64,000 nucleotides of DNA from Bacillota bacterium (lineage in GTDB: Bacteria > Bacillota > Clostridia > Monoglobales > Firm-18): contig JAKJBX010000003.1 in NCBI GenBank assembly GCA_022706765.1, forward strand, positions 10,291-74,290, in the 5' to 3' direction. The translations under genes and the position numbers were made by a program. Shown here piece by piece: positions 47,157 to 64,000 of the stretch. Within the stretch, counting starts at the first letter, position 1; every line of letters begins with the position of its first letter. The notes beneath the pieces are model-generated. The model was given only the letters and a program-made list of their open reading frames with translations, was not told where the DNA came from and did no database searches.

Positions 47157-47567
47157 ATGACGCGACGTGAAGCAAGGGATACCGCATTTAAACTGCTGTA
47201 TCAGATTGAGATGCAAAAGGAAACAGCCGAGCATATATTCGAAATATTCTATATGGAAAGCACACTTCCCGACAAGGTCAAAGCATATGTCGAGGACGTG
47301 GTTTTCGGTGTGTTCGCCAACAAGGCGGACATCGACGCCATCATCGCCAAGCTGCTCGAAGGCTGGAAGCTCTCCCGTATTTCCAAAATCTCGCTGAGCC
47401 TTCTTCGGCTGTCACTCTATGAGATGAAATTTCGCACCGACATCCCCGAAAGCGTCTCCATCAACGAAGCCGTGTCCTTTGCCAAGGCGTATGAAAGCGC
47501 TGAGGCGGCAAGCTTTGTCAACGGTGTGCTGGCGTCCTTCGTCAAATTTAAAGAGGCGCAAAAGTAA
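47157..47567 (+). CDS. nusB: transcription antitermination factor NusB
   Basis: MTRREARDTAFKLLYQ...INEAVSFAKAYES..FVNGVL. Start moved to ATG 47157. Confidence 0.9.
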   Translation: MTRREARDTAFKLLYQIEMQKETAEHIFEIFYMESTLPDKVKAYVEDVVFGVFANKADIDAIIAKLLEGWKLSRISKISLSLLRLSLYEMKFRTDIPESVSINEAVSFAKAYESAEAASFVNGVLASFVKFKEAQK

Positions 47568-48451: not shown

Positions 48452-48452
48452 T

Positions 48453-49625
48453 ATGACCATCACCGTTACCCAGCTCAACAGATACATCAAATCCATTATC
48501 GAGCGTGACGTCCACCTGTCAAACGTTGCGGTAAAGGGTGAGCTGTCGAATTTTAAGCTGCACACCTCCGGGCATTGCTATATGACCTTAAAGGACGAAA
48601 CCTCCACCATCCGCGCGGTGATGTTCAAAAGCGCCGCCGAAAAGCTGCGCTTTATGCCGGAAAACGGCATGAAGGTCATCACGGTCGGCAAAATCTCGGT
48701 CTATGAGCGTGACGGTCAGTACCAGCTTTATATCAATTCCATGCAGCCCGACGGCGTCGGCGACCTGCATGTTGCCTATGAACAGCTAAAACAACGCCTG
48801 GCTGCGGAGGGGCTCTTTGAAGAGAGCCGTAAGAAGCTGCTGCCGAGGTTTCCCCAAACGGTCGGGGTCGTGACCTCGCCCACAGGGGCGGCGGTGCGTG
48901 ACATCGTAAACGTCATCACTCGGCGTTACCCGCTCGCGGAAATACGCATCATGCCCGTACTGGTGCAGGGCGAGGGCGCAGCGGTGCAGATCGCTGCCGC
49001 CATCGGCTATTTTAATGCGAACAACGCCGCCGACGTGCTGATTGTCGGCAGAGGCGGCGGTTCGATAGAGGAGCTTTGGGCGTTCAACGAGGAGCCTGTG
49101 GCGCGTGCCATCGCAGGGTCGAGAATCCCCGTGATTTCAGCAGTCGGTCATGAAACCGATTTCACCATCGCCGACTTTGTCGCCGACCTGCGTGCGCCGA
49201 CGCCCTCCGCGGCGGCGGAGCTTGCCGTGCCGTCGGCGATTGAGCTGACAGCGGTCATCCGGCGCAACTATTCCGCAATGCTGAGCGCGCTTGTCAGGAC
49301 CATTCAAAGCAGGCGTCAGATCCTTAACCGGTTTGCGCTTAAAAATCCAATGGACAGCATAAACCAAAGCCGTATCCGTGTCGATAATTCCGTTAAGCAC
49401 CTGTCAAGCGCGACCGCTGCACTGCTTGTGGCAAAGTCAAAACGCTTATCGGTGGAGGCGGCAAGGCTTGATGCGCTCAGTCCGCTCGGTGTGCTGACGC
49501 GGGGATATAGCGTGGTGCAAAAGGAAGGCGAGGTCATACGCTCCGTCAAACAGGTCAAAGCCGGCGACGATCTGGCTGTCCGCGTGACGGACGGCAGGAT
49601 ATTATGCAGTGTGAAGGAAGGGTGA
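48453..49625 (+). CDS. xseA: exodeoxyribonuclease VII large subunit
   Basis: Start moved to ATG 48453. OB-fold N-terminus (VKGELSNFKLHTSGHCYMTLKD), GRGGGSIEELWAFN. Confidence 0.9.
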   Translation: MTITVTQLNRYIKSIIERDVHLSNVAVKGELSNFKLHTSGHCYMTLKDETSTIRAVMFKSAAEKLRFMPENGMKVITVGKISVYERDGQYQLYINSMQPDGVGDLHVAYEQLKQRLAAEGLFEESRKKLLPRFPQTVGVVTSPTGAAVRDIVNVITRRYPLAEIRIMPVLVQGEGAAVQIAAAIGYFNANNAADVLIVGRGGGSIEELWAFNEEPVARAIAGSRIPVISAVGHETDFTIADFVADLRAPTPSAAAELAVPSAIELTAVIRRNYSAMLSALVRTIQSRRQILNRFALKNPMDSINQSRIRVDNSVKHLSSATAALLVAKSKRLSVEAARLDALSPLGVLTRGYSVVQKEGEVIRSVKQVKAGDDLAVRVTDGRILCSVKEG

Positions 49626-49630
49626 AGAAA

Positions 49631-49861
49631 ATGCCGGAGAACAGCTTTGAAAAATCGATCGAGGCGCTTGACGCCATTGTTAAGGCGCTTGAAAAGGGCG
49701 ACGTTCCCCTTGACGATATGCTGAAGCTTTTTGAGCAGGGGATTGCGCTTTCCCGCACCTGCAACGAGATGCTCGATGCGGCGGAAAAAAAGGTCAACCT
49801 GTTGATCAAAAAAGACGACGGCTTTGAAAAACAGCCGTTTAATCCTACCGAAGGGGTGTAA
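49631..49861 (+). CDS. xseB: exodeoxyribonuclease VII small subunit
   Basis: FEKSIEALDAIVKALEKGDVPLDDMLKLFEQG. Start moved to ATG 49631. Confidence 0.85.
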   Translation: MPENSFEKSIEALDAIVKALEKGDVPLDDMLKLFEQGIALSRTCNEMLDAAEKKVNLLIKKDDGFEKQPFNPTEGV

Positions 49862-49863
49862 AG

Positions 49864-50739
49864 GTGATACACTTGACAGAAGAATTGCAGCGGAAGACCA
49901 CCGTTGTAAACCGTTGGATAACCGACCTTGCCCCTGTGGGCGGCGGCTATCACGGCAGCATCTTCGAGGCGGTCAACTATTCCGTCAAAGCTGGCGGCAA
50001 AAGGATCCGTCCGGTACTGTCGCTTGCTGTTTGCGAAATGCTCGGCGGCAGCGAGGAGGATGTGATGCCCTTTGCCTGTGCGATCGAGTTTATCCATACC
50101 TATTCGCTGATCCACGATGATCTGCCCTGTATGGACGATGACGATTTGCGGCGAGGGCTGCCCACGAGCCACAAGAAGTTCGGCGAGGCGCTGGCGTTGC
50201 TTGCGGGCGACGCGCTGCTAAACCATGCGTTTGAGGTGATGTCAAATGCGCATGTGCCGTCCGGCATCGCCGTTGAGATGATAAAGACCGTGTCCCATGC
50301 CGGCGGCATTTGGGGGATGATCGGCGGTCAGGTTATAGACATGAAGGGCGCCGATACCTACGAGGAGCTTGTTACGCTGTACCGTATGAAAACCGGCGCG
50401 CTGATCACGGCGGCGGGGCAGATCGGCGTTATTGCCGCCAAAAGTAAGGATGAATCGGTGTTTTCTGCCGTGTCGGCCTATACGGATAACCTTGGTATCG
50501 CCTTTCAAATCCGGGACGACCTGCTTGACGTTCTGGGGGACGAACAGCTTTTGGGCAAAAGGGTGGGGCACGACGAGGCGACCGGCAAGCGGACCTTTGT
50601 CAGCTCGCTTGGCATAGACGGCGCGAGGATGGCGCTTGAAGAGTATACGCAAAACGCAAAGAAATCACTTTCGGTTTTCGGTGAAAGGGCGGCGTTTTTA
50701 TCCGCACTTGCCGACTATCTTTTGCAAAGAGAACATTAG
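49864..50739 (+). CDS. ispA: polyprenyl (farnesyl/geranylgeranyl) diphosphate synthase
   Basis: IHDDLPCMDDDDLRRG and FQIRDDLLD aspartate-rich motifs; GTG start. Confidence 0.85.
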   Translation: MIHLTEELQRKTTVVNRWITDLAPVGGGYHGSIFEAVNYSVKAGGKRIRPVLSLAVCEMLGGSEEDVMPFACAIEFIHTYSLIHDDLPCMDDDDLRRGLPTSHKKFGEALALLAGDALLNHAFEVMSNAHVPSGIAVEMIKTVSHAGGIWGMIGGQVIDMKGADTYEELVTLYRMKTGALITAAGQIGVIAAKSKDESVFSAVSAYTDNLGIAFQIRDDLLDVLGDEQLLGKRVGHDEATGKRTFVSSLGIDGARMALEEYTQNAKKSLSVFGERAAFLSALADYLLQREH

Positions 50740-51470: not shown

Positions 51471-52475
51471 TTAAAGATTCAGGTTCTTTTTTTGCCAGCG
51501 CCATGCGTCCTCGCACATCTGCTTCAAATCACGCTCGGCAGCCCAGCCCAGCTCTTTTTGCGCTTTGCCCGGGTCCGCATAGCACGCCGCAATGTCGCCG
51601 CTTCTCGGCGGTGCTATTTTGTACGGTATGGTATGTCCGCACGCCGCCTCCATCGCCCGAAGCACTTCAAGCACGGAGTATCCCGTGCCGGTGCCGAGGT
51701 TATAAATATGCACGCCGGTGGTATCGGCGTTTTTTTCCAATGCTTTCAAATGTCCGATCGCAAGGTCGACCACGTGGATATAATCCCTTATACCGGTGCC
51801 GTCACGGGTCGGATAGCGGTCGCCGAACACGTTTAATGCTTCCAACTGCCCTGCCGCAACCTTTGCGATATAAGGCATCAGGTTGTTCGGAATGCCTTTG
51901 GGGTTTTCGCCGATCTCTCCGCTCTCATGTGCGCCGACGGGGTTGAAGTAGCGCAGTATCGAAATGGAAACCCCGGAGTTTGCCGCGTAAAAATCCTTTA
52001 AAATCTGCTCGATCATCAGCTTTGTGGAGCCATACGGGTTTGTCGTGCCTAAGGGGAAATCTTCGGTGATCGGCAAAGACGCCGGGTCGCCGTAGACGGT
52101 TGCGGAGGAGGAAAAGACAAAGCTTTTGACATGATATTCTTCGATGAGCGACAGCAGGTTCAGCGTCCCCGTGATGTTGTTGTGATAGTATTTGAGCGGC
52201 AGTTGAACAGATTCGCCGACCGCCTTTAACCCCGCAAAGTGGATGACGGCGTCAAAGGTGTTCTCCTCGAAAATCACCCTGAGCGCATCCATATCCAGCA
52301 TATCCGCCAAATAGAATTTAAAGGGCTTTCCGGTGATCCTGACGACGGCGTCATTGACCTTTTCCTCGGAATTGGACAGGTTGTCGAAGGTGACGACGCT
52401 ATGCCCCGCATTTAAAAGCTCTGTACAGGTATGGCTGCCTATATAGCCGGTTCCGCCGGACAGAAGAATGTTCAT
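51471..52475 (-). CDS. galE: UDP-glucose 4-epimerase
   Basis: GGTGYIGSH, YGSTK catalytic motif; 334 aa. Confidence 0.9.
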   Translation of the reverse strand: MNILLSGGTGYIGSHTCTELLNAGHSVVTFDNLSNSEEKVNDAVVRITGKPFKFYLADMLDMDALRVIFEENTFDAVIHFAGLKAVGESVQLPLKYYHNNITGTLNLLSLIEEYHVKSFVFSSSATVYGDPASLPITEDFPLGTTNPYGSTKLMIEQILKDFYAANSGVSISILRYFNPVGAHESGEIGENPKGIPNNLMPYIAKVAAGQLEALNVFGDRYPTRDGTGIRDYIHVVDLAIGHLKALEKNADTTGVHIYNLGTGTGYSVLEVLRAMEAACGHTIPYKIAPPRSGDIAACYADPGKAQKELGWAAERDLKQMCEDAWRWQKKNLNL

Positions 52476-52631
52476 GGCAATACTCCGTTCCGCCGCCCTG
52501 CTCCGGCGCTGGATTGACGACCGAACAACCCTTGTCAGCAGGGGAAAAAGAGTGCGCAGGACGCAAAAGTCCGGTCAGCACTAATATCTTATACCCAAGC
52601 CGCCTGTTTGTCAAGTTCAAGCGACTGTTTT

Positions 52632-52693
52632 CAATTCATGCCTTGGCAAAGGGTTATGTCAGCGCACCTAAAAAGTGCCTGCCGACACTTTTT
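52632..52693 (+). repeat. Repeat R1 copy F (core plus 3' hairpin)
   Basis: CAATTCATGCCTTGGCAAAGGGTTATGTCAGCGCACCTAAAAAGTGCCTGCCGACACTTTTT. Confidence 0.75.
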
Positions 52694-52698
52694 GATTT

Positions 52699-52765
52699 TA
52701 GTAGAAAGTTACGAAAAATCGGCGTAATTTCCACGTTTCGGCAAAAATGCATTTCGCCTTCGCAT
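52699..52765 (+). repeat. Intergenic repeat R2 copy 3 (diverged), directly abutting R1 copy F
   Basis: TAGTAGAAAGTTACGAAAAATCGGCGTAATTTCCACGTTTCGGCAAAAATGCATTTCGCC. Followed by nested hairpin CGCCTTC-GCATCCGCT..AGCGGATGC..GAAGGCG (52755-52801). Confidence 0.65.
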
Positions 52766-52851
52766 CCGCTTGCGCGGTGAGCGGATGCGTTCGGGAAGGC
52801 GCTGCGCACCTAAACGCTTTTTTCATATTTCAAGAAAATTGCAATTTTTAC

Positions 52852-52880
52852 TTGCATTTTGTTGCAGTATTATATATAAT
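52852..52880 (+). promoter_or_regulatory. sigma-A promoter of LytTR two-component operon
   Basis: TTGCAT-17 nt-TATAAT. Confidence 0.45.
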
Positions 52881-52939
52881 TTAATATATATGTACGTTTG
52901 GTGTCTTTCGCATAACTAAACTTGTCGGGAGAAGAGACT

Positions 52940-53656
52940 ATGAAAATTGCGATATGTGATGATGACGTTTTTTATGCCAAACAATTAAAGCAGACCGTTG
53001 GGAATTGTGTCCGGTGCGGCACGATCAGCGGGATCACCCTTTACAACTGCGCCGAGGACCTTCTTGACGCCTATGAGAAGCAGGGACTGCGCTACGACAT
53101 CCTGTTCCTTGACATAAAGCTCAAAAAGCTCAGCGGGCTTGATGCCGCAAAGGTGATCAACAATCTTGACAACAATGTTCTAATCTTTTTGGTTACGGCG
53201 TATGCAGATTATGTTTTTGAAGGATATGAGGTCAGGGCATTCCGCTACATAGTCAAGCCGTTCACGCCGGAGCAAATCGGTAAGGACATGCGCATGGCGC
53301 TGAAACATCTGTATTCATTCGACCGCAAGTATACCATCCAAACGAAATCCAGCATCATGACCTTCAACGTCGACGATATTTTATTCCTTGAAAGCATCAA
53401 GCGCCAGGTCAGCATCGTATCCACAAAGGGGCGGACTTCGTTTTACTCCAAGCTGTCTACCGAGGAGGAAAAGCTGTCCCAGTACGGCTTTGTACGGGTG
53501 CATCAGGGCTATCTGGTCAACATGGCGCAGATCAAGACGATTATCGAAAACAATATTTATCTGACGGACAACACCATCATCCCCATCAGCAAGAGCCAAA
53601 AAAAGGCGCTGCTGACAAGATACACAAAATATTTGACCGAATATGAAGGTATCTGA
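52940..53656 (+). CDS. LytR/AlgR (LytTR) family response regulator
   Basis: Start moved to ATG 52940. MKIAICDDD receiver; C-terminal LytTR (FVRVHQGYLVNM). Confidence 0.9.
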   Translation: MKIAICDDDVFYAKQLKQTVGNCVRCGTISGITLYNCAEDLLDAYEKQGLRYDILFLDIKLKKLSGLDAAKVINNLDNNVLIFLVTAYADYVFEGYEVRAFRYIVKPFTPEQIGKDMRMALKHLYSFDRKYTIQTKSSIMTFNVDDILFLESIKRQVSIVSTKGRTSFYSKLSTEEEKLSQYGFVRVHQGYLVNMAQIKTIIENNIYLTDNTIIPISKSQKKALLTRYTKYLTEYEGI

Positions 53657-54436
53657 ATGAAGAACACAGTAAAAAGTTATGTTTTTTCAGCCCTTTTGTC
53701 TGCTTTGACCGGGCTGATATTGTTTTATTGCACGGCTGATGTATGGCTTTCCCTTATCGTCAGCCTTGTATTTTTATGCAGCCTTTTTATGCTGGCATGG
53801 CGCACCGGCGACCTGCGGAAGAAAATGCGGGAAATGGAAAAGCTGATAGACATGCAAAACGCCCAATATACTGCGTTGGAAGTGTTTCGGGATATATTCA
53901 GATCGGCGTGGCACGACTTCAAAAACCACACCACCTGTATCCTCGGCTTCATGGAAAGCGGCGATACGGACTCGGCAAAAAAATATGTCTCCAGCATTGC
54001 GGACAGCGTCGGTGCGGTGCCGCAGTGCATGACGGGGAATTTAGCGTTTGACTGTATTCTTTCGGCGAAAATACGCAAGGCGCAGGAAATGGGGATTGGT
54101 TTTTCATACCGCTTGAATTTGCCGTCGCACATTGGTATAACGCCTGTCGACCTGACGGTCATCCTGTCCAATGTCCTTGACAACGCCATCGAAGCGTGCG
54201 AACGTCTCGGCAGCGCCGATAAGATCATCACCCTTGATGTCGGGCAAAAAAGCGATATGCTGTTTTTAAGGGTTGCAAACACCGCCGATTTGTCAGCCGG
54301 CGCAAGAAAACAAGGAGTCTTTCACGGGATGGGGCTTAAAAATGTGGAGGCGGCGCTTGCGAAATATCACGGTCATATGGAGGCTGAAACAAGCGTCGGG
54401 GAATATGTTCTCCGTATTTTGATAAAATATAAATAA
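53657..54436 (+). CDS. GHKL sensor histidine kinase, AgrC/HPK10-like, only two TM helices
   Basis: H-box FRSAWHDFKNHTT; N-box LSNVLDNAIEA; G-box GMGLKNV; partner of the LytTR regulator. Confidence 0.75.
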   Translation: MKNTVKSYVFSALLSALTGLILFYCTADVWLSLIVSLVFLCSLFMLAWRTGDLRKKMREMEKLIDMQNAQYTALEVFRDIFRSAWHDFKNHTTCILGFMESGDTDSAKKYVSSIADSVGAVPQCMTGNLAFDCILSAKIRKAQEMGIGFSYRLNLPSHIGITPVDLTVILSNVLDNAIEACERLGSADKIITLDVGQKSDMLFLRVANTADLSAGARKQGVFHGMGLKNVEAALAKYHGHMEAETSVGEYVLRILIKYK

Positions 54437-54587
54437 TTGTGACATTTCAAAGTCCAAATATTACATTCTGCTGTCTTTTTATATGGTGTTATAATATAAT
54501 TTATAACAGGAATAGAATGGGCAAATAATATATACAGTGGCAGAATTTCAAATTTTTATTTATGGTTGTCTTCGGGGTGAACAGAGT

Positions 54588-56432
54588 ATGCAGACATTGA
54601 TTACCACAACCGTTTTTGGACTGAAAAAGGGCGATGTTGACGCTTATATTGCAAAGCTCACCCATTCCTTCAAGGATAAGCTGAGTGAGCTGATCAAAGA
54701 AAAGAAGCTGCTTGAGCGTGCCAAGCAGAAGCTTTTGGTTGAGCTCAATTCCATAGAACCGGGCGCTGTCGTCTATGAAGATGTCGAGGAGCCTGTAAGC
54801 GCTGAAAATACCGGAAAAGCGGTTGATGCCGAAGACGCCCAAAAAACCATCGTTTTGATCAACGAGCTTGCGGAGCAAAAAATCGAGCAGATGATTGACA
54901 AGGCAAAGACCCAGGTTGCCGAATATGACGTGGTTTTGGAAAACCTCAACGAGGAAATGGAAGAAAACAAACGCCAGATCGAGCAGTTGTTGTCTGACGT
55001 GATCACGCTTTTGCAGACCAACATCAGCGAGGTGTTCGACGGACAGCCCCAAAAGTCTTCGGGCGTTGCCGGCAATCCTGACCGTGAAAAGGTCATTGAT
55101 TTGTTCGACAAAAAGAGCCAGTCCGAAAGCAAAGCGGTATCTGCCGTGCCGAAGGACATCGAAGACAAGATGATGAATACGCTGAGGTCATATAACGACA
55201 TCAAGTCCAGCCTGCTCATGCGCATCGACAACATCATCGCCGACAACCCCTATGCCAAGGGTGCGGTTTTGCTGGTTGAGATCAGCAACCTGCTTTTGGC
55301 GAGCTATTTCAGTAAATCGCACGCGGAGGACGAACTCATCGACCTCGTCGTCAAGGGCATAAGCGAGTTGAGCTATAAATTACAGCCGGTCAGGCTTTCG
55401 TATGACCAAATCGCCATTTTGCTCGAAGACGTCAATGAAGCGGCGTCCGTTTCGCTGCTTGCGGACGGGATATTGCGGCAGATCGAGGGCATCGGCAGCA
55501 AGAGCAAGGCGTCGGCAGACATCTCCGCCAACATCGGTATTGCGCTGTATCCGCAAAATGCGACCGACAGCGAAACGATTATGAATTGCGCCGCTATTGC
55601 GCTGTTTAAGTCCAAGGAAAACGGTAAGGGCAACTACGAATTTATCAACGACGACCTGATTCGTGAAATCAAGCTTTCGGGTGAATTCAAGCAGGATTTG
55701 TATGACGCCGTCGAAAAGGATGAGCTGGCGCTGTTCTATCAGCCGCAGTTTTCCGCCGAGGGCAATACGCTGTTCGGCTTTGAAGCGTTGCTGCGGTGGC
55801 AAAATGAAAAATACTTCAAGGTGCCGATCCTTCAAGTCATCCAGGCTGCCGAGAAGGATGACTTGATTTCCAAAATCGGTACGATGGTGTTCAGAAAGGC
55901 GTGTATCTTTGCTAAAAAAATCAATACCGACAGGCAGCGTGACTTGATCGTTTCCGTCAATTTTTCAAATGTCCAGATTTCAAAGAGCGACTTTGTCGAA
56001 ACCGTTCAGAGTGTGCTGCTTGAAACCGGCGTTGATCCGAAACACATCGGCTTTGAGATTACCGAATCCTGCTTTATGGAGTGTTTCGGTGACAATTGCA
56101 GCAAAATCCAGCGCATCAAGGACTTGGGCGTCACCATATTGATCGACGATTTCGGCACGGGCTATTCAACGCTGTCCTATCTGATCAACCTGCCCGTGTC
56201 CATTGTCAAAATCGACAAGACGTTTTTAGACAGCATGGCGACCAACGAACGCAATGCGAACTTTGTCAGTTCGATCATTGATATATCCCATGATTTGGGC
56301 TTGAAGGTTATCGCAGAGGGCATCGAAACGGAGCGTCAGCGGGAAATGTTATCGGCAATGGGGTGCGATGTCTTGCAGGGCTATTTGCTGTCTAAACCGG
56401 CGCCCGAGGATGATGCGTGCAAATTTTTATAA
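54588..56432 (+). CDS. c-di-GMP phosphodiesterase: DivIVA-like N-terminal coiled-coil module + degenerate GGDEF + EAL
   Basis: Start moved to ATG 54588. GGDEF position reads RLSYDQIAILL. EAL residues intact (FEALLRW, NFS, EITES, DDFGTGYS, KIDKTF, EGIET, QGYLLSKP). Confidence 0.85.
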   Translation: MQTLITTTVFGLKKGDVDAYIAKLTHSFKDKLSELIKEKKLLERAKQKLLVELNSIEPGAVVYEDVEEPVSAENTGKAVDAEDAQKTIVLINELAEQKIEQMIDKAKTQVAEYDVVLENLNEEMEENKRQIEQLLSDVITLLQTNISEVFDGQPQKSSGVAGNPDREKVIDLFDKKSQSESKAVSAVPKDIEDKMMNTLRSYNDIKSSLLMRIDNIIADNPYAKGAVLLVEISNLLLASYFSKSHAEDELIDLVVKGISELSYKLQPVRLSYDQIAILLEDVNEAASVSLLADGILRQIEGIGSKSKASADISANIGIALYPQNATDSETIMNCAAIALFKSKENGKGNYEFINDDLIREIKLSGEFKQDLYDAVEKDELALFYQPQFSAEGNTLFGFEALLRWQNEKYFKVPILQVIQAAEKDDLISKIGTMVFRKACIFAKKINTDRQRDLIVSVNFSNVQISKSDFVETVQSVLLETGVDPKHIGFEITESCFMECFGDNCSKIQRIKDLGVTILIDDFGTGYSTLSYLINLPVSIVKIDKTFLDSMATNERNANFVSSIIDISHDLGLKVIAEGIETERQREMLSAMGCDVLQGYLLSKPAPEDDACKFL

Positions 56433-56445
56433 GGGTATGATATTT

Positions 56446-57747
56446 ATGAGGTTTTTCTATTCAATGCGTTATATTAAGACGGCCGTTTTGATGCTGCTGC
56501 TGACAGCGCTTGTGCTTGTGGGTCCGGCGTATGCGGCAAGCAGCTACTACGAACAGGCGAGGGTTCTTTACAATCTCAACCTTTACAAAGGAACGAGTGC
56601 GACCTATTTTGAGCCGGATTTGGAGTCTTATGTTGACCGGGAAACCGCAATCGTTTTGGTTTTGCGTCTATTCGGCAAGACCTCCGACGTCGAAAATTAT
56701 TATGATTACCGTGTACAAAGCATCCTCAGCGCATACAGCGACGGCGGCGACGTCTCGTCGTGGGCAAGGAAATATGTCGCTTATGCGATCAACAACCAGC
56801 TGTTTCCGGGTGAGCTCCAAGGGTCTGTTTTGCCGAAGCGTTATATCGACGGCAAGACGTTTATCGGTCTTATGCTGAACTGCATGGGCTATAAGCTCTA
56901 CGGCGACCAGTGGACGATAGCCGCCTATATCAATTCCTACCTCGGCGGGGTTTCTGCGGACGATGCGCGGTATGTCAACGACAAGATCATTTCCAAAAAC
57001 GATATGGTCGCCATCATATGGGAGTCGCTCGATATGCCGACGAAGGATTACGCGACGCTGCTTAACATGATCGTGGATTACAACAGCATCAGCTCTTCGA
57101 AGCTGACGCAATTGGGCTTTATTCGGGTGAACGGCAAGCTGATCCCTCCGGCGTTCTACTCCACCGGACTGGCGACCGCCACCGATTACTCGGTCGGATA
57201 CACGATGTCAGACGGCTCTAAATATGCGGGCGGCACCTCCGGCGGCGTGCCGGACGGGTTTGGTGTCGTCACCTATGAGGACGGCAGCGTCTATGAGGGA
57301 TATGTTTCCGCGGGCAAGCGGCACGGCGAAGGCAAATTATTAAGAAGCGACGGCTTTGTTTATGTCGGCGGCTGGCAAAATGACATGATGAATGGCAAGG
57401 GCGCCATGACCTGGGCAAACGGCGACAGATACTCCGGTGATGTGGTCAACGGCTCTTTCCAGGGCACCGGCACCATGACCTGGGCAAGCGGTAACGAGTA
57501 CACAGGTCAGTGGTGGGCAGGGAATTTCCACGGCAAGGGGAAATTCAAATGGAACAACGGCGACTATTACGACGGCGAATGGAATATGGGCGTTTTTAAC
57601 GGCTACGGCACGATGATGCGCTCAAACGGCGAGATGTACGAGGGCTATTGGGAAAATGGCAAAAGACACGGCTACGGTAAATGCATACTCGCTGACAAGA
57701 CTGTTTTGATCGGCAGATGGGAAAATGACGAGTACGTTGGGTCGTAA
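56446..57747 (+). CDS. secreted MORN-repeat protein with SLH-like N-terminal region
   Basis: Signal peptide MRFFYSMRYIKTAVLMLLLTALVLVGPAYA; about 8 MORN repeats (YEGYVSAGKRHGEGK, YVGGWQNDMMNGKG ...). Confidence 0.75.
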   Translation: MRFFYSMRYIKTAVLMLLLTALVLVGPAYAASSYYEQARVLYNLNLYKGTSATYFEPDLESYVDRETAIVLVLRLFGKTSDVENYYDYRVQSILSAYSDGGDVSSWARKYVAYAINNQLFPGELQGSVLPKRYIDGKTFIGLMLNCMGYKLYGDQWTIAAYINSYLGGVSADDARYVNDKIISKNDMVAIIWESLDMPTKDYATLLNMIVDYNSISSSKLTQLGFIRVNGKLIPPAFYSTGLATATDYSVGYTMSDGSKYAGGTSGGVPDGFGVVTYEDGSVYEGYVSAGKRHGEGKLLRSDGFVYVGGWQNDMMNGKGAMTWANGDRYSGDVVNGSFQGTGTMTWASGNEYTGQWWAGNFHGKGKFKWNNGDYYDGEWNMGVFNGYGTMMRSNGEMYEGYWENGKRHGYGKCILADKTVLIGRWENDEYVGS

Positions 57748-57760
57748 ATGAAGAAATCTA

Positions 57761-58477
57761 ATGACAAAGGATTTGACACAGCGTATGAAAAAGCTGATAA
57801 TTATCCCGGTTTTTAACGAAGAGGCAAACATCAGCATTGTGCTGAGTGAGCTGAAAAGTAAATGTCCGGATACGGATATTCTGATCATCGACGACGGCTC
57901 CACCGATGCGTCGTATAAGGTGTGTGTGGATACCCGGGCGTGCGAGATCATCAGGCTGCCCATGAACCTCGGCATCGGCGGCGCACGGCAGACAGGATTT
58001 AAGTATGCGCTGAACATGGAATATGATGTCGTCATTCAAATGGACGGCGACGGACAGCATGATCCGGCTGACATCAATGCGATGGTTGCGGAAATCGAAA
58101 ACGGCACGGACCTGTGCATCGGTTCCCGTTTTATCAAATACGAGGGCTTTCAGTCCTCATTTACCAGAAGACTCGGTATTTCCGTCATTTATAATTTGAT
58201 CAAAATGATCACAGGCAAGCGCATCACTGACCCGACATCGGGATACAGGGCTTGCAGCAGGGCGGCGATCGCATTGTTTGCCCGGGAGTATCCGCATGAT
58301 TATCCCGAGCCGGAGTCGATCATCACCGCCGCAAAAAACAAATTGGTCATCAAGGAAATCCCCGTGACCATGAATGCAAGGATCAACGGCAAGTCAACCA
58401 TCGGCGGTTCTGATTCGGTTTACTTTATGATAAAAATCACCTTGGCGATTTTAATCGACGCTATGTCGAAAAAATGA
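57761..58477 (+). CDS. family 2 glycosyltransferase (polyprenol-phosphate sugar transferase, GtrB/DPM1-like)
   Basis: IIIPVFNEEANI, IIDDGSTD, QMDGDGQHDP motifs. ATG 57785 is an alternative start. Confidence 0.85.
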   Translation: MTKDLTQRMKKLIIIPVFNEEANISIVLSELKSKCPDTDILIIDDGSTDASYKVCVDTRACEIIRLPMNLGIGGARQTGFKYALNMEYDVVIQMDGDGQHDPADINAMVAEIENGTDLCIGSRFIKYEGFQSSFTRRLGISVIYNLIKMITGKRITDPTSGYRACSRAAIALFAREYPHDYPEPESIITAAKNKLVIKEIPVTMNARINGKSTIGGSDSVYFMIKITLAILIDAMSKK

Positions 58478-58505
58478 CCGCATTGCCATTTAGGGAGGGT
58501 TGTTT

Positions 58506-58865
58506 ATGCTTGATTACCGGCTGCAAATCGTGTTGCTTTCCGCGACATTATCGTTTTTGATTTATATCATCGACATGGTCAGGAATAAGCGCTTGGAGCT
58601 GCACTATATCATCATTTGGCTGTTTTCGGCGATCGCTTTGATCGTGATCACCATCCTGCCCGGTGCGCTTCATTTGATTTCACAGCTTTTGCATATTCAG
58701 GAGCCTGTAAACACCCTGTTTATGTCGCTGATTTTCTTTTTGATTATGATCATTTTTTCGCTGACCAAGATTTTATCTAAGAACTTTGTTCGTGTCAGTA
58801 CGCTGGCACAGGAGCTCGGCATCGTCAAGCTTGAGATCGAGCAGCTTAAAAGACAGATGAAATAA
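58506..58865 (+). CDS. DUF2304 small membrane protein (usual GT2 partner)
   Basis: ATG 58506 is 6 nt after GGGAGGG. Three TM helices; VRNKRLELHYIIIWL motif; coiled C-terminus. Confidence 0.65.
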   Translation: MLDYRLQIVLLSATLSFLIYIIDMVRNKRLELHYIIIWLFSAIALIVITILPGALHLISQLLHIQEPVNTLFMSLIFFLIMIIFSLTKILSKNFVRVSTLAQELGIVKLEIEQLKRQMK

Positions 58866-58896
58866 CCCGGCACTTTTGTTATGGGAGGCAGACCGT

Positions 58897-60618
58897 TTGG
58901 ATAAGAAAATTAAGGTAATGCTGTCAACGGAGGGGACGTATCCTTTTCATCAGGGCGGTGTCAGCACATGGTGCGACATCCTTGTCAATCAGCTTGAAAA
59001 TGTTGATTACACCGTGTACAGCCTGATGATGAATCCGTTTATATCGCAAATATTCGATTTGCCAAGCTCGGCAGAGCTTGTTAAAGTGCCGCTTTGGGGA
59101 ACGGAAGAACCGAGCGAATACCTTGATGTGCCGTTTTCAAAGGTCTACATATCCAAGCGCCGCACCACGGATTCGGTGATCCGTGAAAAATTCATCCCGC
59201 TTTTTCGCCAAATGATCAGTGAAATGCTGAGCCTTGAAAAAAAGCCGAGAAAGCTCGGCGAAGTGCTGCATAGCATGTACCTGTATTTTCAGGAATATGA
59301 ATATAAGAAGAGCTTCAAGTCCGGCATCGTGTGGGACGAATACAAATCTATCGTATACAGCTTTGCGGCGGTACCGGACAATGACATTGATATGCCCAGC
59401 GTCTACGACCTCATCCAAAGCCTCGGCTGGCTGTACCGCTTTATGGTGACGCTCAATACGCCCATCCCGAAAGCGGACGTCACCCATTCGGCGGCGGCAG
59501 CGTTTTGCGGCATCCCGTGCGTGCTCGCCAAAATCGAGAACAACACGCCCTATATGCTGACGGAACACGGCGTCTATATCAGGGAACAGTATCTGTCGCT
59601 GTCAAAGCGCGGTTACCCGTCCTACCTGAACACCTTTTTCATCAGGATGGTCAACTCTGTCATCAGTCTCAACTACGAGTACGCCGATGTGGTCGCGCCC
59701 GTCTGCCGGTATAACGTCAGGTGGGAGTCGCATTTCGGCGTGGAGGACGATAAGATCAACGTCATCTACAACGGCGTTGACACCGACCGCTTTGCGCCGA
59801 TGGAAAGCAAAAGAAAATACCGGCAGCCGACCGTGGTTTCGATCGCAAGGATAGACCCTTTAAAAGACATCATTTCGCTGATTGAGGCGACGGATCTTGT
59901 GCGCAGGGAGATTCCCGACATCAAGGTGTCGCTGTACGGCTCCGTTTCGGTCGAGGATTACTATGAGGAATGTCAAAAACGTGTCAGGGACCTTGGGCTG
60001 GAAGACCACTTCATCTTTGAGGGGCACACCAACAACGCCCCCGAGGCGTATAATTCCGGCGATATTGTCGCACTGTCAAGCATTTCCGAAGCCTTTCCCT
60101 ATTCCGTCGTCGAAGCGATGATGAGCGGGAAGCCGGTTGTGTCGACGGACGTCGGCGGTATTGCGGAGGCGCTTGGCGACTGCGGCGTTTTGGTGACGCC
60201 CCGTGCACCGGAGGAGCTTGCGCAGGGGATCATCACCTTCTTGAAAAACCCCGAAATGATCAAAGAAAAGGGCGAAAAGGCAAGAAAACGCGCCGTCGAA
60301 TATTTTTCTATTGAAAAAGTGCTGGAAAACCATTATAATTCATATATGAGGCTTGTGACCTCCGAACGTGAAATCAAAAAGGTGCTTCCGATTTCACTGC
60401 TGCAAAAGCAAAAGTTTTACGCCGAAAAGGGATATACGCTGCTTAATATGGGCTATGTCCGCGAGGCGATCGAGCAGTTCAGAGAGGCGGTTAACGCCTC
60501 GCCTGCCTCGCCGTCCGCACCCATACTGGTACTGGAAATCGCCAATTCCTACCGCAAGCTCGGCGAACACGACAAGGCGGAGCTTGAAATCTTGAAAAGC
60601 AGCGCTTTGACAGGCTGA
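58897..60618 (+). CDS. PelF-like family 4 glycosyltransferase (DUF3492 + Glycos_transf_1) with C-terminal TPR-like extension
   Basis: MLSTEGTYPFHQGGVSTWCDILVNQL compares with PelF LLLEGTWPYVRGGVSSWINQLI (recalled). GT4 EAFPYSVVEAMMSGKPVV; last about 80 aa TPR-like. TTG 58897 is 8 nt after GGGAGG. Confidence 0.75.
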   Translation: MDKKIKVMLSTEGTYPFHQGGVSTWCDILVNQLENVDYTVYSLMMNPFISQIFDLPSSAELVKVPLWGTEEPSEYLDVPFSKVYISKRRTTDSVIREKFIPLFRQMISEMLSLEKKPRKLGEVLHSMYLYFQEYEYKKSFKSGIVWDEYKSIVYSFAAVPDNDIDMPSVYDLIQSLGWLYRFMVTLNTPIPKADVTHSAAAAFCGIPCVLAKIENNTPYMLTEHGVYIREQYLSLSKRGYPSYLNTFFIRMVNSVISLNYEYADVVAPVCRYNVRWESHFGVEDDKINVIYNGVDTDRFAPMESKRKYRQPTVVSIARIDPLKDIISLIEATDLVRREIPDIKVSLYGSVSVEDYYEECQKRVRDLGLEDHFIFEGHTNNAPEAYNSGDIVALSSISEAFPYSVVEAMMSGKPVVSTDVGGIAEALGDCGVLVTPRAPEELAQGIITFLKNPEMIKEKGEKARKRAVEYFSIEKVLENHYNSYMRLVTSEREIKKVLPISLLQKQKFYAEKGYTLLNMGYVREAIEQFREAVNASPASPSAPILVLEIANSYRKLGEHDKAELEILKSSALTG

Positions 60619-60718
60619 TGATTTAAACCGACATGAGCGGATGGCTTTACAAAATTCCGACGGCAGGGGCTGTGTGTGTTCGACTCCCCTATGCCTACAT
60701 GAGAGAGGTGACACGTGA

Positions 60719-61150
60719 ATGCCTATTACAGACCGAATTACGCTTTTTGGTTACAGTGCTTTGGAGGTCGAGCAATACGTCCGGACCTTAGAGCAGGAGT
60801 ATGACACAAAGAAGAAGGAGCTCGAAGACACCATTGCCGCGCTTCAACAGGAGATCGAGGAGCTGAAAGAGCAGATCGAATTTCAGCGTGCCAACAAAAA
60901 GGTCGTCGTGAAAAAGCGTACCGTCAAGGCGCCTTCGTCCGACAGCAAGGAGGATAAAGCGATCATGCAGTCGCTTTATGATGCGCACATCAAGGCGACG
61001 GAAAAGGTGGCAAAGGTGCAGAAGAACATTTCCATGACGCTTGAAAAGCGCAAATCGCTGATTTTGCTTAGGGAAAAGAAGGCGAGTGAAATGAAAGCGG
61101 ATCTGCAAAACCTGATTGACTATATCGATTCTTTGGCTAAGGACTATTAG
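60719..61150 (+). CDS. DivIVA-like coiled-coil protein
   Basis: N-terminal LFGYSALEVEQYVRTL resembles the DivIVA FRGYDEDEVNEFL motif; remainder is heptad-rich. Confidence 0.55.
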   Translation: MPITDRITLFGYSALEVEQYVRTLEQEYDTKKKELEDTIAALQQEIEELKEQIEFQRANKKVVVKKRTVKAPSSDSKEDKAIMQSLYDAHIKATEKVAKVQKNISMTLEKRKSLILLREKKASEMKADLQNLIDYIDSLAKDY

Positions 61151-61165
61151 AAAGAGGCTATGCGT

Positions 61166-62233
61166 ATGAATAGAATCAATATCCCGACACGGCTGTTTGG
61201 TCTGAACAAACAAGACGTCTCCGAGCATATCGACAATCTTTCCAAAGACAGTCAGAAAAGCCTTGACGAGCTTGGCAGAGAGCTTGCCCGTTTGCAGAAA
61301 GAAAAAAGCAAACTGGAAACCGAGCTTTCGCAGGTCCAAAAGGAAGAGATTAAGTATGAGGATGAGATAGTCGAGTCGCCGGCGCAGCCGTCGGACAACA
61401 AGACGCTTGACGAAGCATACAAGCGCCTGGAAAAAACCGTTGCGCTTATCAATATGGTTGCGGATGAGGAATCGTCGCAGCTTGTTTCCAGTGCCAATAA
61501 AAAGATCGAAGAATACGACCGGATGATTCAGGGCTTGCAGGACGACATCGACGAGAAGAAAAAGCGCATCGAAGCGCTTTTGTCCAATGTTTTAGGCATC
61601 TTGAAGGCAAATGTCGACAACGTCACCTCTAAGATCAAAGATAAGGAAAAGCTTGGCAAGACCTTGGCTGATCCGGAGTCCCTGCGTGAAAAATTATCGC
61701 AATACATAGACGAAGACGTTGCGAAGGATGATGAGCTGCCGGTCACGAAAAAAGCCGCCATTACCGCCGACGGCACGTCGCTTTCGGGACTGCCCAAGCT
61801 TTTGATGTTCCAGAACAAGTATGGCATCAAACCCCGTGAAGGCAAAAAGACGGCGGAAGAGGAGCAGCTTTTGCCGGCTGATGAGCTGGAAGATTTCACT
61901 CGCAACCACGACGTGGATTTGGGAAGCGACCCCGCCGCGGGTCTTGATAAATGGTACGACGACATCCCCGACGAGTTTGGCGAGGTCTTGCAGCAAGCCG
62001 AGCAGCAGGCTGCCGTGCAGTCCGCTCCCGCCGCGTCCGAAGAGGAAGGACACGACATCAAAAAGATGCGTGACACGCTGATTATCGGCAAGGTCGCGGG
62101 CGAAAATATATTTGACGGTGAGAATAATATTATCATACCCAAAGGAAAGGTGCTTACCGAGGAGGATGTCGCTGTCGCCGAGAGAGAATCGAAGCTCGCG
62201 GAACTCATCATCAACATGTCGCTTCCGAAGTAA
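61166..62233 (+). CDS. DivIVA-like coiled-coil protein with acidic linker and small C-terminal module
   Basis: LFGLNKQDVSEHIDNL. Residues about 85-150 are paralogous to the N-terminal module of the EAL protein. ATG 61166 is 8 nt after AAAGAGG (ORF track 61160). Confidence 0.55.
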   Translation: MNRINIPTRLFGLNKQDVSEHIDNLSKDSQKSLDELGRELARLQKEKSKLETELSQVQKEEIKYEDEIVESPAQPSDNKTLDEAYKRLEKTVALINMVADEESSQLVSSANKKIEEYDRMIQGLQDDIDEKKKRIEALLSNVLGILKANVDNVTSKIKDKEKLGKTLADPESLREKLSQYIDEDVAKDDELPVTKKAAITADGTSLSGLPKLLMFQNKYGIKPREGKKTAEEEQLLPADELEDFTRNHDVDLGSDPAAGLDKWYDDIPDEFGEVLQQAEQQAAVQSAPAASEEEGHDIKKMRDTLIIGKVAGENIFDGENNIIIPKGKVLTEEDVAVAERESKLAELIINMSLPK

Positions 62234-62245
62234 GAGGTTATTGAT

Positions 62246-63853
62246 ATGACAGACAAACCGAATTACGAAATCATAGCAGAAGAGAGCATATTCAACAGCC
62301 TGATCAGCGACATTACGGAACGGCAGCCGTATCCCGAGAACTATTACGAAGTGGCGGCTGTTTTGGAGTCCATCGGCTGGAACGATGCGCGGGCGAACGC
62401 AACGTTTGGTATGGCGGATATTTTTGAGCTTGCTTCCGAGGTGTATAACGTCATCACCGAGGACGTCAGTTTTTCGACCTTTGAAGAAAAAAAGCAGCAC
62501 ACGCTGCCCCACAAAATTAACATCATTTTCAAGAGCTTTATTCGCGGCATGGTGTTTGCACTGCCGATGGCGATTTCAGTTTTTGCGATGCTGACGCTGC
62601 GGTTTTCGCTTTGGTCATATGAATTTTCATCGGTCGAGGTGGCGACCTGCATTGCTATCGGTACGATTTTTAGTTTTTTGACCGTCGGCGGATTTATGCA
62701 GGCGATCGCCCGACGTGGCTTTTTGTACCTACGCCAGGGCTATTACAACCTTGCGCGCAAAATCACGGTGTATTTTATCCGTTTAGGCTATGTGCTGACC
62801 GCCGTGATCCTTTTGTCGTTTCTGCTGTTTAATTTGGTGTTTGAGGCGTTCCCCATTGATATGGTCATGATCATCGTGCTGTACTACCTCTTTTTGTGCG
62901 CGATTTGGTTTTCCGTCACGGTCATGTATATATTGGAGCGTGAATTCACCTTCACGGCGCTGATCGTTGCAGGTATCGGCATCGTGTACCTTTTGTTCAA
63001 GGTGTTCGGGTTTGAAATCATCATTTCACAGATCATCGCACTGCTGATCGTGTCGGTAGCGGGCCTGCTGTTGATTTTTTACTTCTTTCACAAGGAAGAG
63101 AAGAAGATGGATAAAGGCATCGAGCCGTCGCTGCCGAAAAAGTCCATCACGCTATACACCACCTTTCCGTATTTTGCCTACGGGTTTTTATATTTTGCCT
63201 TTTTGTTTATGGACAGGATCATCGGCTGGTCGACCAACCAGTCGTATATGCCATACATCATTTGGTTCAGGGGCGCATACGAGCTTGGCTTGGACTTTGC
63301 GCTGCTGATGCTGATCGTTCCGATGGGCGCCTGCGAGGTCGTTGTCAGCAAGCTGATGGACGAGCTTGACGAGGGTCAGAAAAACGCTTTCGGTACGGAC
63401 TCCGTTGTTATCGGCAAGCAGTTTCAAAGGATTTATTTTAAAAGACTTTTGCTGGTTGCGGGCGTTGCGGTGCTGAGCGCACTGGTGACCTATTCCGTCG
63501 TGTGGTACTTTGAGATGCACCCACCGACCGACAACTTTCGCACAGGCTTTTTGAGCAACTATGTCACGCATTTCGTGCTGATCATCGGGCTTGTAAGCTA
63601 TGCGATCATCAGCTGCGCACTGATGAACTGCGTCACGCTGTTTTCGCTGTCACAACCCGAGATGGCGGGCAGGACGGTCCTGATCTCGCTGATCGTCAAT
63701 ATCGTGGTCGGCTTTTTGCTCAGCCGTTGGATCGACTATTACTATGCCGTTTTCGGACTGCTTGTCGGTTCGATCGTCTTTTTGATACTCAGCTCACGAA
63801 AAATTTTGCAGCTTTTCAAAAAACTGGACTATTACCTGTACTTCCAGGCATAA
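62246..63853 (+). CDS. 12-TM polytopic membrane protein with about 95-aa cytoplasmic N-terminal extension; possibly PelG-like/MOP-type exporter
   Basis: 12 hydrophobic segments counted by eye; position after a PelF-like gene. No sequence motif recognised, so the PelG call is contextual only. Confidence 0.45.
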   Translation: MTDKPNYEIIAEESIFNSLISDITERQPYPENYYEVAAVLESIGWNDARANATFGMADIFELASEVYNVITEDVSFSTFEEKKQHTLPHKINIIFKSFIRGMVFALPMAISVFAMLTLRFSLWSYEFSSVEVATCIAIGTIFSFLTVGGFMQAIARRGFLYLRQGYYNLARKITVYFIRLGYVLTAVILLSFLLFNLVFEAFPIDMVMIIVLYYLFLCAIWFSVTVMYILEREFTFTALIVAGIGIVYLLFKVFGFEIIISQIIALLIVSVAGLLLIFYFFHKEEKKMDKGIEPSLPKKSITLYTTFPYFAYGFLYFAFLFMDRIIGWSTNQSYMPYIIWFRGAYELGLDFALLMLIVPMGACEVVVSKLMDELDEGQKNAFGTDSVVIGKQFQRIYFKRLLLVAGVAVLSALVTYSVVWYFEMHPPTDNFRTGFLSNYVTHFVLIIGLVSYAIISCALMNCVTLFSLSQPEMAGRTVLISLIVNIVVGFLLSRWIDYYYAVFGLLVGSIVFLILSSRKILQLFKKLDYYLYFQA

Positions 63854-63874
63854 TGACGGGATGGAGGACGACTG

Positions 63875-64000
63875 ATGGGTGAGCTTTTGGCGGATAGCGC
63901 CGTATATTTGGTCAAGTGCCTGACGGCGTTTTTGGTTTTGTTCCTGCTGATTCCCCGTGTGATTTTCACCGAGGACGGCGAGGACGTGACCAAAGGCATT
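63875..64000 (+). CDS. 5' end of a further membrane protein gene (runs off window)
   Basis: GGAGG 7 nt before ATG 63875; MGELLADSAVYLVKCLTAFLVLFLLIPRVIF... hydrophobic N-terminus. Confidence 0.45.
   Translation, partial: MGELLADSAVYLVKCLTAFLVLFLLIPRVIFTEDGEDVTKGI

Follow-up and report, generated by a model that had tools for sequence, protein, structure and literature searches.

What kind of glycopolymer system is encoded at the end of a 64,000-nucleotide stretch of a Bacillota genome (contig JAKJBX010000003.1; this whole stretch is called the window below), where a pelF-type gene stands among genes that are not part of described pel operons? Pel is among the few biofilm polysaccharides common to Gram-negative and Gram-positive bacteria. 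To our knowledge, it has yet to be worked out how PelF and PelG polymerise the chain and export it, and cyclic di-GMP (c-di-GMP) signalling is poorly understood in Gram-positive bacteria. The initial annotation of this DNA read positions 57761-64000 as an atypical Pel-like locus, perhaps a variant synthase-dependent system. Our analysis supports that reading: the PelF model is passed, PelG is the recurrent family match of the 12-helix membrane protein, and the downstream regions of the five closest orthologous loci contain no canonical pel genes. We consider it probable that the locus specifies a divergent polysaccharide machine of the Pel type, linked to c-di-GMP and coupled to a module for glycosylation on the outer side of the membrane. 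The gene content supports a Pel-type synthase core with other scaffolding, signalling and modification parts, to which a GacIJL-like module with a GT-C-fold glycosyltransferase (GT) is added.

The plus strand from 57761 to 64000 holds closely packed genes for a family 2 glycosyltransferase (GT2), a DUF2304 protein, a PelF-type DUF3492-GT4 protein with tetratricopeptide repeats (TPRs), two coiled-coil proteins (ccA and ccB) and a 535-residue, 12-helix protein, followed by the start of another membrane-protein open reading frame (ORF) (Table 1). Every gene named in the initial annotation was found on this strand in the order and at the coordinates it gave, and the close spacing was borne out, with intergenic gaps of 10-100 nt. 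A scan for intergenic terminators between 52.9 and 64 kb revealed none that was convincing, and an Rfam scan near the locus returned no riboswitch and no other Rfam family. The beginning of the locus lies upstream of 57761, and the locus belongs to a cluster family that is widespread in Bacillota. As part of the reading given above, and held with the same confidence, the section 57761-64000 is probably the centre of one long operon that begins by 54537, possibly already at 52922, and reaches about 6 kb past the end of the window.

We surveyed this cluster family using one genome per species. The survey returned 80 loci, and the frequencies given here were calculated from the 46 loci with full 10-kb flanks. 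The cluster occurs in at least 80 species, nearly all of them Bacillota, with carriers in Paenibacillus, Cohnella, Clostridium, Desulfosporosinus, Peptococcaceae, Psychrobacillus, Priestia abyssalis, Tumebacillus, Alicyclobacillus and many metagenome-assembled genomes (MAGs). Genes for PelF, the PelG-like protein and GT-C were found together in 100% of the loci and GT2 in 91%, indicating that the arrangement is not due to chance. The comparison of PelF-like genes that the initial annotation had proposed thus returned a constant linkage of these three in 46/46 Bacillota loci. The other components were an HD-GYP-like protein (80%), a MurJ-like protein (76%), an ATP-grasp protein (72%), a CE4 deacetylase of the XrtA type (TIGR03006, 72%), a GH114-like protein (61%) and a galE homologue within 10 kb (48%), and two GT-C paralogues were present in 21 of the 46 loci. 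The commonest order is PelF, one or two coiled-coil genes, PelG-like, GT-C with or without its paralogue and ATP-grasp, followed by the XrtA-type CE4 deacetylase, MurJ-like, GT2 with DUF2304, HD-GYP-like and GH114-like genes. The window belongs to a small clade of Oscillospiraceae/Eubacteriales-type MAGs, in which the GT2-DUF2304 pair has been relocated ahead of PelF, LytTR, kinase, EAL and MORN genes have been added, and the ATP-grasp, CE4 deacetylase and MurJ-like genes are absent from the locus. Two occurrences on short contigs, in a Candidatus Udaeobacter MAG (L015, Verrucomicrobiota) and a Smithella MAG (L067, Desulfobacterota), are most likely to represent mis-binning rather than true presence.

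The GT4 is a cytoplasmic enzyme with the N-terminal DUF3492 domain of PelF and, as regards the concern that it might score better to other families, it passes the NCBIfam PelF model NF038011 (152.4 bits against a cutoff of 100), with residues 14-486 aligned to positions 2-485 of the 489 in the profile. No separate gene for PelE, a small membrane TPR protein, was found in the locus. Instead, two TPRs (TPR_8 and TPR_2, residues ~510-580) are fused to the C-terminus of PelF, and this extension is kept in 60 family members. It is not covered in the 25 plasmid PelF matches listed, from Proteobacteria, Deinococcota and Actinomycetota, where the query match stops at about residue 495.

The 535-residue protein has more than 400 homologues, all annotated as hypothetical. 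The search with PF16933 (PelG) that had been suggested left the window copy unmatched but matched 20 of 29 representative family members, making PelG the sole Pfam family to recur. Ten of these members, when inspected, gave end-to-end alignments (profile positions 27/32-452, protein residues ~100-533); the best PF16933 score in the family was 43.3 bits (3.1e-11) against a cutoff of 29, with one of the ten clearly above the cutoff and one at it. NCBIfam offers no usable PelG model, and a canonical PelG protein is likewise unmatched there. The AlphaFold2 model of the window protein (predicted local distance difference test score, pLDDT, 79.4) contains a four-helix cytoplasmic N-terminal domain, which is family-specific and about 100 residues long, and 12 long helices. 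Its best PDB matches in Foldseek are MATE, MurJ and WzxE, which belong to the MOP superfamily. The gene is separated from pelF by the two coiled-coil genes. From the predicted fold and the family matches we term the protein PelG-like, its membership in PelG being not fully proven. Identification as Wzx, MATE or MurJ by sequence was tried and rejected, as no such model recurs in the Pfam scan of the family; with only PelG recurring, the match to Wzx/O-antigen or teichoic-acid families that the initial annotation had allowed for did not appear.

The structural matches to MurJ and WzxE besides MATE could, however, point to a lipid-linked, Wzx/Wzy-like pathway. Here, the PelF-like GT4 would build an oligosaccharide on an undecaprenyl carrier, the PelG-like protein would flip it, and polymerisation or ligation outside would fall to the GT-C proteins; or else these proteins would build the polymer directly from a polyprenyl-phosphate-monosaccharide, like the mycobacterial Emb/Aft enzymes. 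The arabinosyltransferases AftA and EmbA/B among the structural matches of GT-C, the MurJ-like gene in three-quarters of the related loci (76%) and the frequent pairing of GT-C paralogues (21/46) would fit such a pathway. We nevertheless consider it unlikely. The GT4 is specifically of the PelF type with DUF3492, the MOP-protein family matches PelG and no Wzx or Polysacc_synt model, and no initiating phosphoglycosyltransferase, Wzy or chain-length regulator was seen among the called genes of L001 and L002, two fully annotated related loci, in a search of the loci only and not genome-wide.

The Pel-type core is accompanied by a second set of recognisable genes. The DUF2304 gene begins 22 nt after the stop codon of the GT2 gene and encodes a partner of the GacJ type. 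Both this pairing and the 238-residue size of the GT2 fit a synthase of polyprenyl-phosphate-N-acetylhexosamine (polyprenyl-P-HexNAc), and among 56 loci, 44 have a small ORF with multiple transmembrane (TM) segments after GT2. DUF2304 includes the small membrane proteins GacJ and Rv3632, which bind and stimulate the GT2 enzymes GacI (undecaprenyl-phosphate-GlcNAc synthase) and PpgS (polyprenyl-P-GalNAc synthase); a GT-C, GacL, then passes the sugar on at the outer face of the membrane, the flipping of the sugar being ascribed, as a proposal, to the Wzx-like GacK (bioRxiv 10.1101/180810). The GT2 orthologue of the commoner cluster type matches PpgS best (111 bits). On sequence grounds, GT2 and DUF2304 are a predicted polyprenyl-P-HexNAc synthase pair of the GacI/GacJ (PpgS/Rv3632) type.

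The third part of this module is the gene that runs off the end of the window. Its product corresponds to a 641-residue protein of the same genome, P0123, whose family of large membrane proteins has no match by sequence in Pfam, NCBIfam or the PDB, and whose GT-C fold is visible only by structure prediction. The AlphaFold2 model of P0123, calculated from a 98-sequence alignment, has a pLDDT of 94.6 and a predicted template modelling (TM) score of 0.93. In the Foldseek comparison with the PDB, the 18 highest-ranking matches are without exception GT-C proteins (STT3/OST, PglB, AglB, DPY19, AftA, ArnT, ALG12, EmbA/B and Pmt4), with probabilities of 0.99-1.00 and TM-scores up to 0.50. The first outer loop opens with a conserved acidic residue, which is D in more than 90% of members and E175 in P0123. 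A word-indexed search gave 3-5 homologues; the exhaustive representative search that was used instead found 1,047 cluster representatives at E <= 0.001. Residues 1-140 of P0123 form an extra N-terminal block of three TM and two cytoplasmic helices before the canonical GT-C core; this block opens with a conserved proline (P27 in P0123, more than 90% of family members). Identification of the protein as an oligosaccharyltransferase was considered and rejected, as the family consensus shows no WWDxG-type motif. The predicted model identifies the gene after the PelG-like gene as a GT-C glycosyltransferase, the fold present in GacI/GacJ/GacL-type modules, so that GT2, DUF2304 and GT-C make up a recognisable, predicted three-part glycosylation module.

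Modules of the GacI/J/L and PpgS/Rv3632/Rv3779 types decorate wall polymers, as do those of the CsbB/YfhO type. The product might thus not be a secreted matrix at all: the locus could make or decorate a cell-wall glycopolymer, or glycosylate surface proteins such as the MORN/SLH-like protein, with GT2, DUF2304 and GT-C working as in Group A carbohydrate or teichoic-acid glycosylation. It is in keeping with this that the best structural matches of GT-C by E-value are the oligosaccharyltransferases STT3 and PglB, that AglJ is the best NCBIfam match of the GT2, and that secreted MORN proteins flank the locus in the window's clade. However, among the related loci the MORN genes are confined to that clade, as an accessory of it, whereas GT-C is linked to PelF and the PelG-like protein throughout. 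In addition, no LCP ligase was seen in the loci, and PelA-hydrolase-like and c-di-GMP proteins are typical of matrix polysaccharide systems. We give a wall or surface product a low probability.

The window ends inside the locus, and its PelF passes the NCBI model, so the remaining genes of an ordinary pelDEA(DA)FG operon might be imagined just past position 64000. Domain scans of the window confirmed that it has no PelD-like receptor, no PelA-like deacetylase and no separate PelE; the accompanying suggestion that these could lie downstream did not hold, because none of the five closest orthologous loci has pelD, pelE or a gene for a PelA-type deacetylase, PelA(DA). PelD, a membrane protein with a GAF and a degenerate GGDEF domain, was found neither in the window nor in L001 and L003-L007; instead, the orthologous loci carry a protein with a TM helix, a GAF-like region and a degenerate HD-GYP domain. 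The closest locus, whose PelG-like protein is 79% identical and which shares the upstream synteny, continues after PelG-like with 644-residue and 701-residue membrane proteins, a 610-residue HD-GYP protein, a 252-residue GH114-like protein and a Big_2/MORN protein. The closest loci thus run on as GT-C, GT-C, degenerate HD-GYP, GH114-like and MORN, and the next gene of the window genome itself encodes GT-C. Moreover, GT2 and DUF2304 precede pelF here, where pelD, pelE and pelA stand in described Gram-positive operons (PMC7112168). Of the defining Pel proteins, PelF is therefore present and PelD, PelE and PelA(DA) are not, and we regard an ordinary pel operon as extremely improbable.

The HD-GYP-like protein does not have the residues of an active phosphodiesterase. 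Mapping of 44 family sequences against the active enzymes 5z7c and 4mcw revealed that the HD dyad has become SN (consensus LSNIG, with the majority residue in 80-95% of sequences), that a later metal-binding Asp has become Gln and that the upstream His is lost, while HHExxDGxGYP is kept. The intact HD dyad and full set of metal ligands of HD-GYP phosphodiesterases are thus missing. A single TM helix at the N-terminus, a region weakly similar to GAF domains (3ci6, E 1.8e-4) and a conserved Cys-rich tail are also present in the protein. The layout resembles that of PelD, which combines a membrane anchor, a GAF domain and a dead c-di-GMP domain, and by this analogy we infer that the protein may be a c-di-GMP receptor. 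The tail, CWEM.C..S.IC..CPAY.....NCWE...NNC.AHGK.C.TCFVYTE (genes at 15696-17528 in L001 and 18359-20200 in L002), matched no known domain and may be a metal- or redox-sensing module.

The GH114-like profile has PelA as its best PDB match (9cgy, 2.7e-20; 5tcb, 2e-18) and scores 30 bits to Pfam GH114. A TIM barrel of the PelA hydrolase type (GH166/GH114-like) is thus present, although only the orthologous loci show it. The loci of Psychrobacillus, Paenisporosarcina and Priestia abyssalis lack the HD-GYP domain, and their TM and GAF-like N-terminal region is fused straight to the GH114 domain (Table 1). This indicates a functional link between the HD-GYP-like and GH114-like proteins, with a cytoplasmic location of the GH114 domain.

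Two ORFs lie between the PelF and PelG-like genes in nearly all loci. An equivalent of ccA, 95-170 residues long, was found in this position in 45 loci. Equivalents of ccB are mostly 300-450 residues long, and the C-terminal motif ...EGKL.ELI(I/V)NM.(I/L)P is present in 61 loci; the C-terminus of the window's ccB is 47% identical to that of a Clostridium swellfunianum protein. The two proteins share an N-terminal motif, (F/W/L)-G-(Y/L) followed after 3-4 residues by V. DivIVA (PF05103) is the commonest Pfam match among ccA and ccB proteins (18 of 87, best 1.3e-7), although the window proteins, at 18 bits, stay under the cutoff of 28; PRC-barrel matches were seen in three family members. Residues 22-166 of the EAL protein encoded upstream are paralogous to the N-terminus of ccB (34% identity over 149 residues, E 1.85e-18; window positions 54600-55034 against 61181-61624). 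This suggests that the phosphodiesterase may join the same coiled-coil assembly through its ccB-like N-terminus and so be tethered to the synthase scaffold. Its EAL catalytic motifs, as read from the translation, are intact (EALLR, N, EITE, DDFGTG, KIDK, EGIE and QGY), and its GGDEF motif is lost.

Taken together, these components suggest the following working model. The cytoplasmic PelF-type GT4 would polymerise UDP-HexNAc, probably UDP-GalNAc supplied via GalE, with its C-terminal TPRs replacing the missing PelE as a docking element, and the PelG-like protein with its predicted MOP fold would carry the chain across the membrane. The two DivIVA-like coiled-coil proteins may scaffold or position the complex, and recruitment of the EAL phosphodiesterase to the same assembly, by way of its paralogous N-terminus, would provide local control of c-di-GMP. 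GT2 and DUF2304 would make polyprenyl-P-HexNAc on the inner leaflet, like GacI/GacJ and PpgS/Rv3632, and after flipping, the two GT-C paralogues would attach this sugar, as a side-chain or another modification, to the polymer that has been exported. The downstream TM/GAF-like/HD-GYP protein without HD metal ligands, a component taken from orthologous loci only, would be a c-di-GMP receptor rather than a hydrolase and the functional analogue of PelD, and the PelA-hydrolase-like TIM barrel may trim the polymer.

Several observations weigh against this model. The window's 535-residue protein has no direct match in Pfam, PF16933 included, or in NCBIfam, and an hhalign comparison of the PelG-like profile with five annotated canonical PelG proteins was in register but weak (E 0.065), so that its assignment to PelG is drawn from relatives, fold and position. 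The best NCBIfam matches of the window GT2 (AglJ 84, PpgS 79 and PgfS 58 bits) are all far under the equivalog cutoffs, and we have left its sugar unassigned for this reason. GT-C might instead have a protein or an unrelated wall polymer as its acceptor. The window's clade has neither a CE4 deacetylase nor a MurJ-like flippase at the locus, although a cationic Pel-like polymer would be expected to need the former and flipping of the polyprenyl-P-sugar the latter. No signal peptide is visible in the GH114-like proteins; they are apparently cytoplasmic, unlike PelA or Ega3, which makes a role in trimming the exported polymer doubtful. Finally, the content past position 64000 was taken from orthologous loci that are 74-79% identical, except for the 641-residue GT-C, which comes from the window genome.

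A broader interpretation, which we put forward tentatively and regard as rather unlikely, is that the family is a third, Bacillota-wide type of Pel-like system. It would be the first synthase-type exopolysaccharide system to combine three features: branching or modification outside the cell by GT-C from polyprenyl-P-HexNAc; activation of the synthase through a c-di-GMP receptor with a catalytically dead HD-GYP domain in place of a degenerate GGDEF or a PilZ domain; and DivIVA-like placement of the synthase and the EAL protein at the pole or septum for local c-di-GMP control. The cluster family points to a minimal conserved core, as it keeps PelF and the PelG-like and PelA-hydrolase-like proteins alone and has every other part replaced. 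The TPRs fused to PelF and the degenerate HD-GYP protein in the place of PelD are natural experiments on the roles of PelE and PelD. The cluster would also contribute an uncharacterised GT-C family with some 1,000 sequence clusters and a candidate for a new class of c-di-GMP receptors in Gram-positive bacteria, and would connect positioning proteins of the DivIVA type with the synthesis of matrix. Culturable carriers among Paenibacillus, Clostridium, Desulfosporosinus, Psychrobacillus and Tumebacillus strains make these hypotheses testable.

The surroundings of the locus agree with the neighbours first described, namely a degenerate-GGDEF/EAL protein, a secreted MORN protein (with an SLH match that is sub-threshold) and a galE gene on the opposite strand (Table 1). 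The galE product is a possible source of UDP-GalNAc for the locus. The LytTR regulator is syntenic in the orthologous loci L001, L003 and L005-L007. The start codon of the MORN gene is ambiguous, with candidates at 56368, 56437 and 56464. G+C content is ~0.45-0.49 over the front of the locus (52000-59500, from the regulators to the 5' end of pelF), 0.49-0.52 over the rest (60-64 kb) and 0.55-0.58 in the upstream housekeeping genes xseA, xseB and ispA-like (47500-50500). The lower values in the locus could reflect horizontal acquisition, or merely the composition of membrane-protein genes.

Table 1 Features of the window and, in the last four rows, fusion genes of related loci (numbered within each locus).
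Feature	Position	Strand	Basis
galE-type UDP-hexose/HexNAc 4-epimerase	51471..52475	-	PF01370, 203 bits; divergent from the locus
LytTR-type response regulator	52922..53656	+	Response_reg and LytTR domains; clade-specific upstream regulator
Small membrane GHKL kinase, SpoOB-type helix and HATPase_c_5	53657..54436	+	PF14501, 67.8 bits; PF14689; partner of the LytTR regulator
c-di-GMP phosphodiesterase: DivIVA-like coiled-coil N-terminus, degenerate GGDEF, EAL	54537..56432	+	EAL, 215 bits; partial GGDEF, 33.9 bits
Secreted MORN-repeat protein with signal peptide and weak SLH-like segment	56437..57747	+	MORN, 109 bits, 6 repeats; SLH, 17.6 bits, under cutoff
GT2, predicted polyprenyl-phosphate-sugar synthase of GacI/PpgS/AglJ type, 238 residues	57761..58477	+	PF00535, 86.6 bits
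DUF2304 small membrane protein, GacJ/Rv3632-type	58500..58865	+	PF10066, 75.8 bits (cutoff 25.5)
PelF-type cytoplasmic GT4: DUF3492, GT1 domains and C-terminal TPRs, 580 residues	58876..60618	+	PF11997, 132.5 bits; PF00534, 108 bits
ccA, small coiled-coil protein with DivIVA-like N-terminal motif	60719..61150	+	Weak DivIVA/GpsB-type matches
ccB, larger coiled-coil protein, 357 residues: DivIVA-like N-terminus, acidic linker, conserved C-terminal domain	61160..62233	+	DivIVA, 18 bits, weak
Divergent PelG-like MOP-superfamily membrane protein, 535 residues	62246..63853	+	PelG matches of the family, predicted MOP fold, position
Predicted GT-C-fold glycosyltransferase, 641 residues; first 42 codons (start ATG), running off the window end	63875..64000	+	N-terminus identical to P0123 of the same genome
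GAF-like/GH114 fusion, L047	18173..19594		
GAF-like/GH114 fusion, L052	20158..21552		
GAF-like/GH114 fusion, L058	20127..21437		
GAF-like/GH114 fusion, L063	18156..19559		

In the literature, we found no description of this architecture or of these components combined. Described Gram-positive pel operons are of the pelDEA(DA)FG type with accessory galE/pelA(H) or cotH/PPP/DUF4956/DUF4832 genes (PMC7112168). In the organism table of that study, the carrier genera checked (Desulfosporosinus, Cohnella, Psychrobacillus and Alicyclobacillus) do not occur, and the Paenibacillus and Clostridium entries shown are other species (P. mucilaginosus, P. sp. BD3526 and C. botulinum). Gram-positive loci in which pelF and pelG alone were identified have been mentioned and not analysed further (PMC7112194).

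Uncharacterised PelF clusters are also found on large plasmids of Deinococcus aquaticus (pDATS01, L084), Streptomyces californicus (L085) and Thermus brockianus (pTB1, L086). They combine pelF with genes for a hypothetical membrane protein, for sugar-nucleotide enzymes and for GH114, joined in Streptomyces by a spherulin-4-like gene; their annotated content is pelF, hypothetical proteins and endo-alpha-1,4-polygalactosaminidase. These clusters contain the closest PelF in the plasmid collection (29-34% identity) and share GH114 genes with the cluster family described here. In the D. aquaticus cluster, the N-terminal domain of the PelG-like family recurs in the neighbouring membrane protein (hhalign E 7.7e-5). 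The plasmid clusters differ in that they have sugar-nucleotide modification genes and lack the TPR extension, the coiled-coil genes, GT2/DUF2304 and an HD-GYP gene. Two of the large hypothetical proteins from the Deinococcus and Streptomyces clusters were tested as relatives of GT-C and revealed no homology.

Among characterised systems, the Pel locus of Bacillus cereus ATCC 10987, pelDEA(DA)FG (Whitfield et al. 2020, PMC7112168), shares with ours a PelF-type DUF3492-GT4 followed by a 12-helix protein (PelG there, PelG-like here), a nearby galE, a locus-associated PelA-hydrolase-like gene, linked c-di-GMP enzymes (the EAL protein here, CdgE/CdgF there) and a Gram-positive host without outer-membrane export parts. 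It differs in having PelD, where the orthologous loci here have the TM/GAF-like/degenerate HD-GYP protein, a separate PelE, where TPRs are fused to PelF here, and a PelA-type deacetylase, where the window's clade has none and other clades have the XrtA-type CE4 enzyme. The PelG-like protein of the present family is highly divergent with an extra N-terminal domain, its hydrolase-like protein is apparently cytoplasmic, and two DivIVA-like genes, GT2 with DUF2304 and one or two GT-C are extra parts. GT2, DUF2304 and GT-C have their counterparts in GacI/GacJ/GacK/GacL of the Streptococcus pyogenes Group A carbohydrate and PpgS/Rv3632/Rv3779 of Mycobacterium tuberculosis. In those systems the acceptor is polyrhamnose or arabinogalactan, where a PelF-made polymer is presumed here; the GT-C here has no Pfam, NCBIfam or PDB sequence match and carries an N-terminal three-helix extension, and the window's clade has no dedicated flippase gene at the locus. 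Common to these modules and the present cluster are a GT2 polyprenyl-P-HexNAc synthase (a predicted one here) directly followed by its DUF2304 activator, a polytopic GT-C in the same locus and, in most of the related loci, a MOP-family (MurJ-like) flippase.

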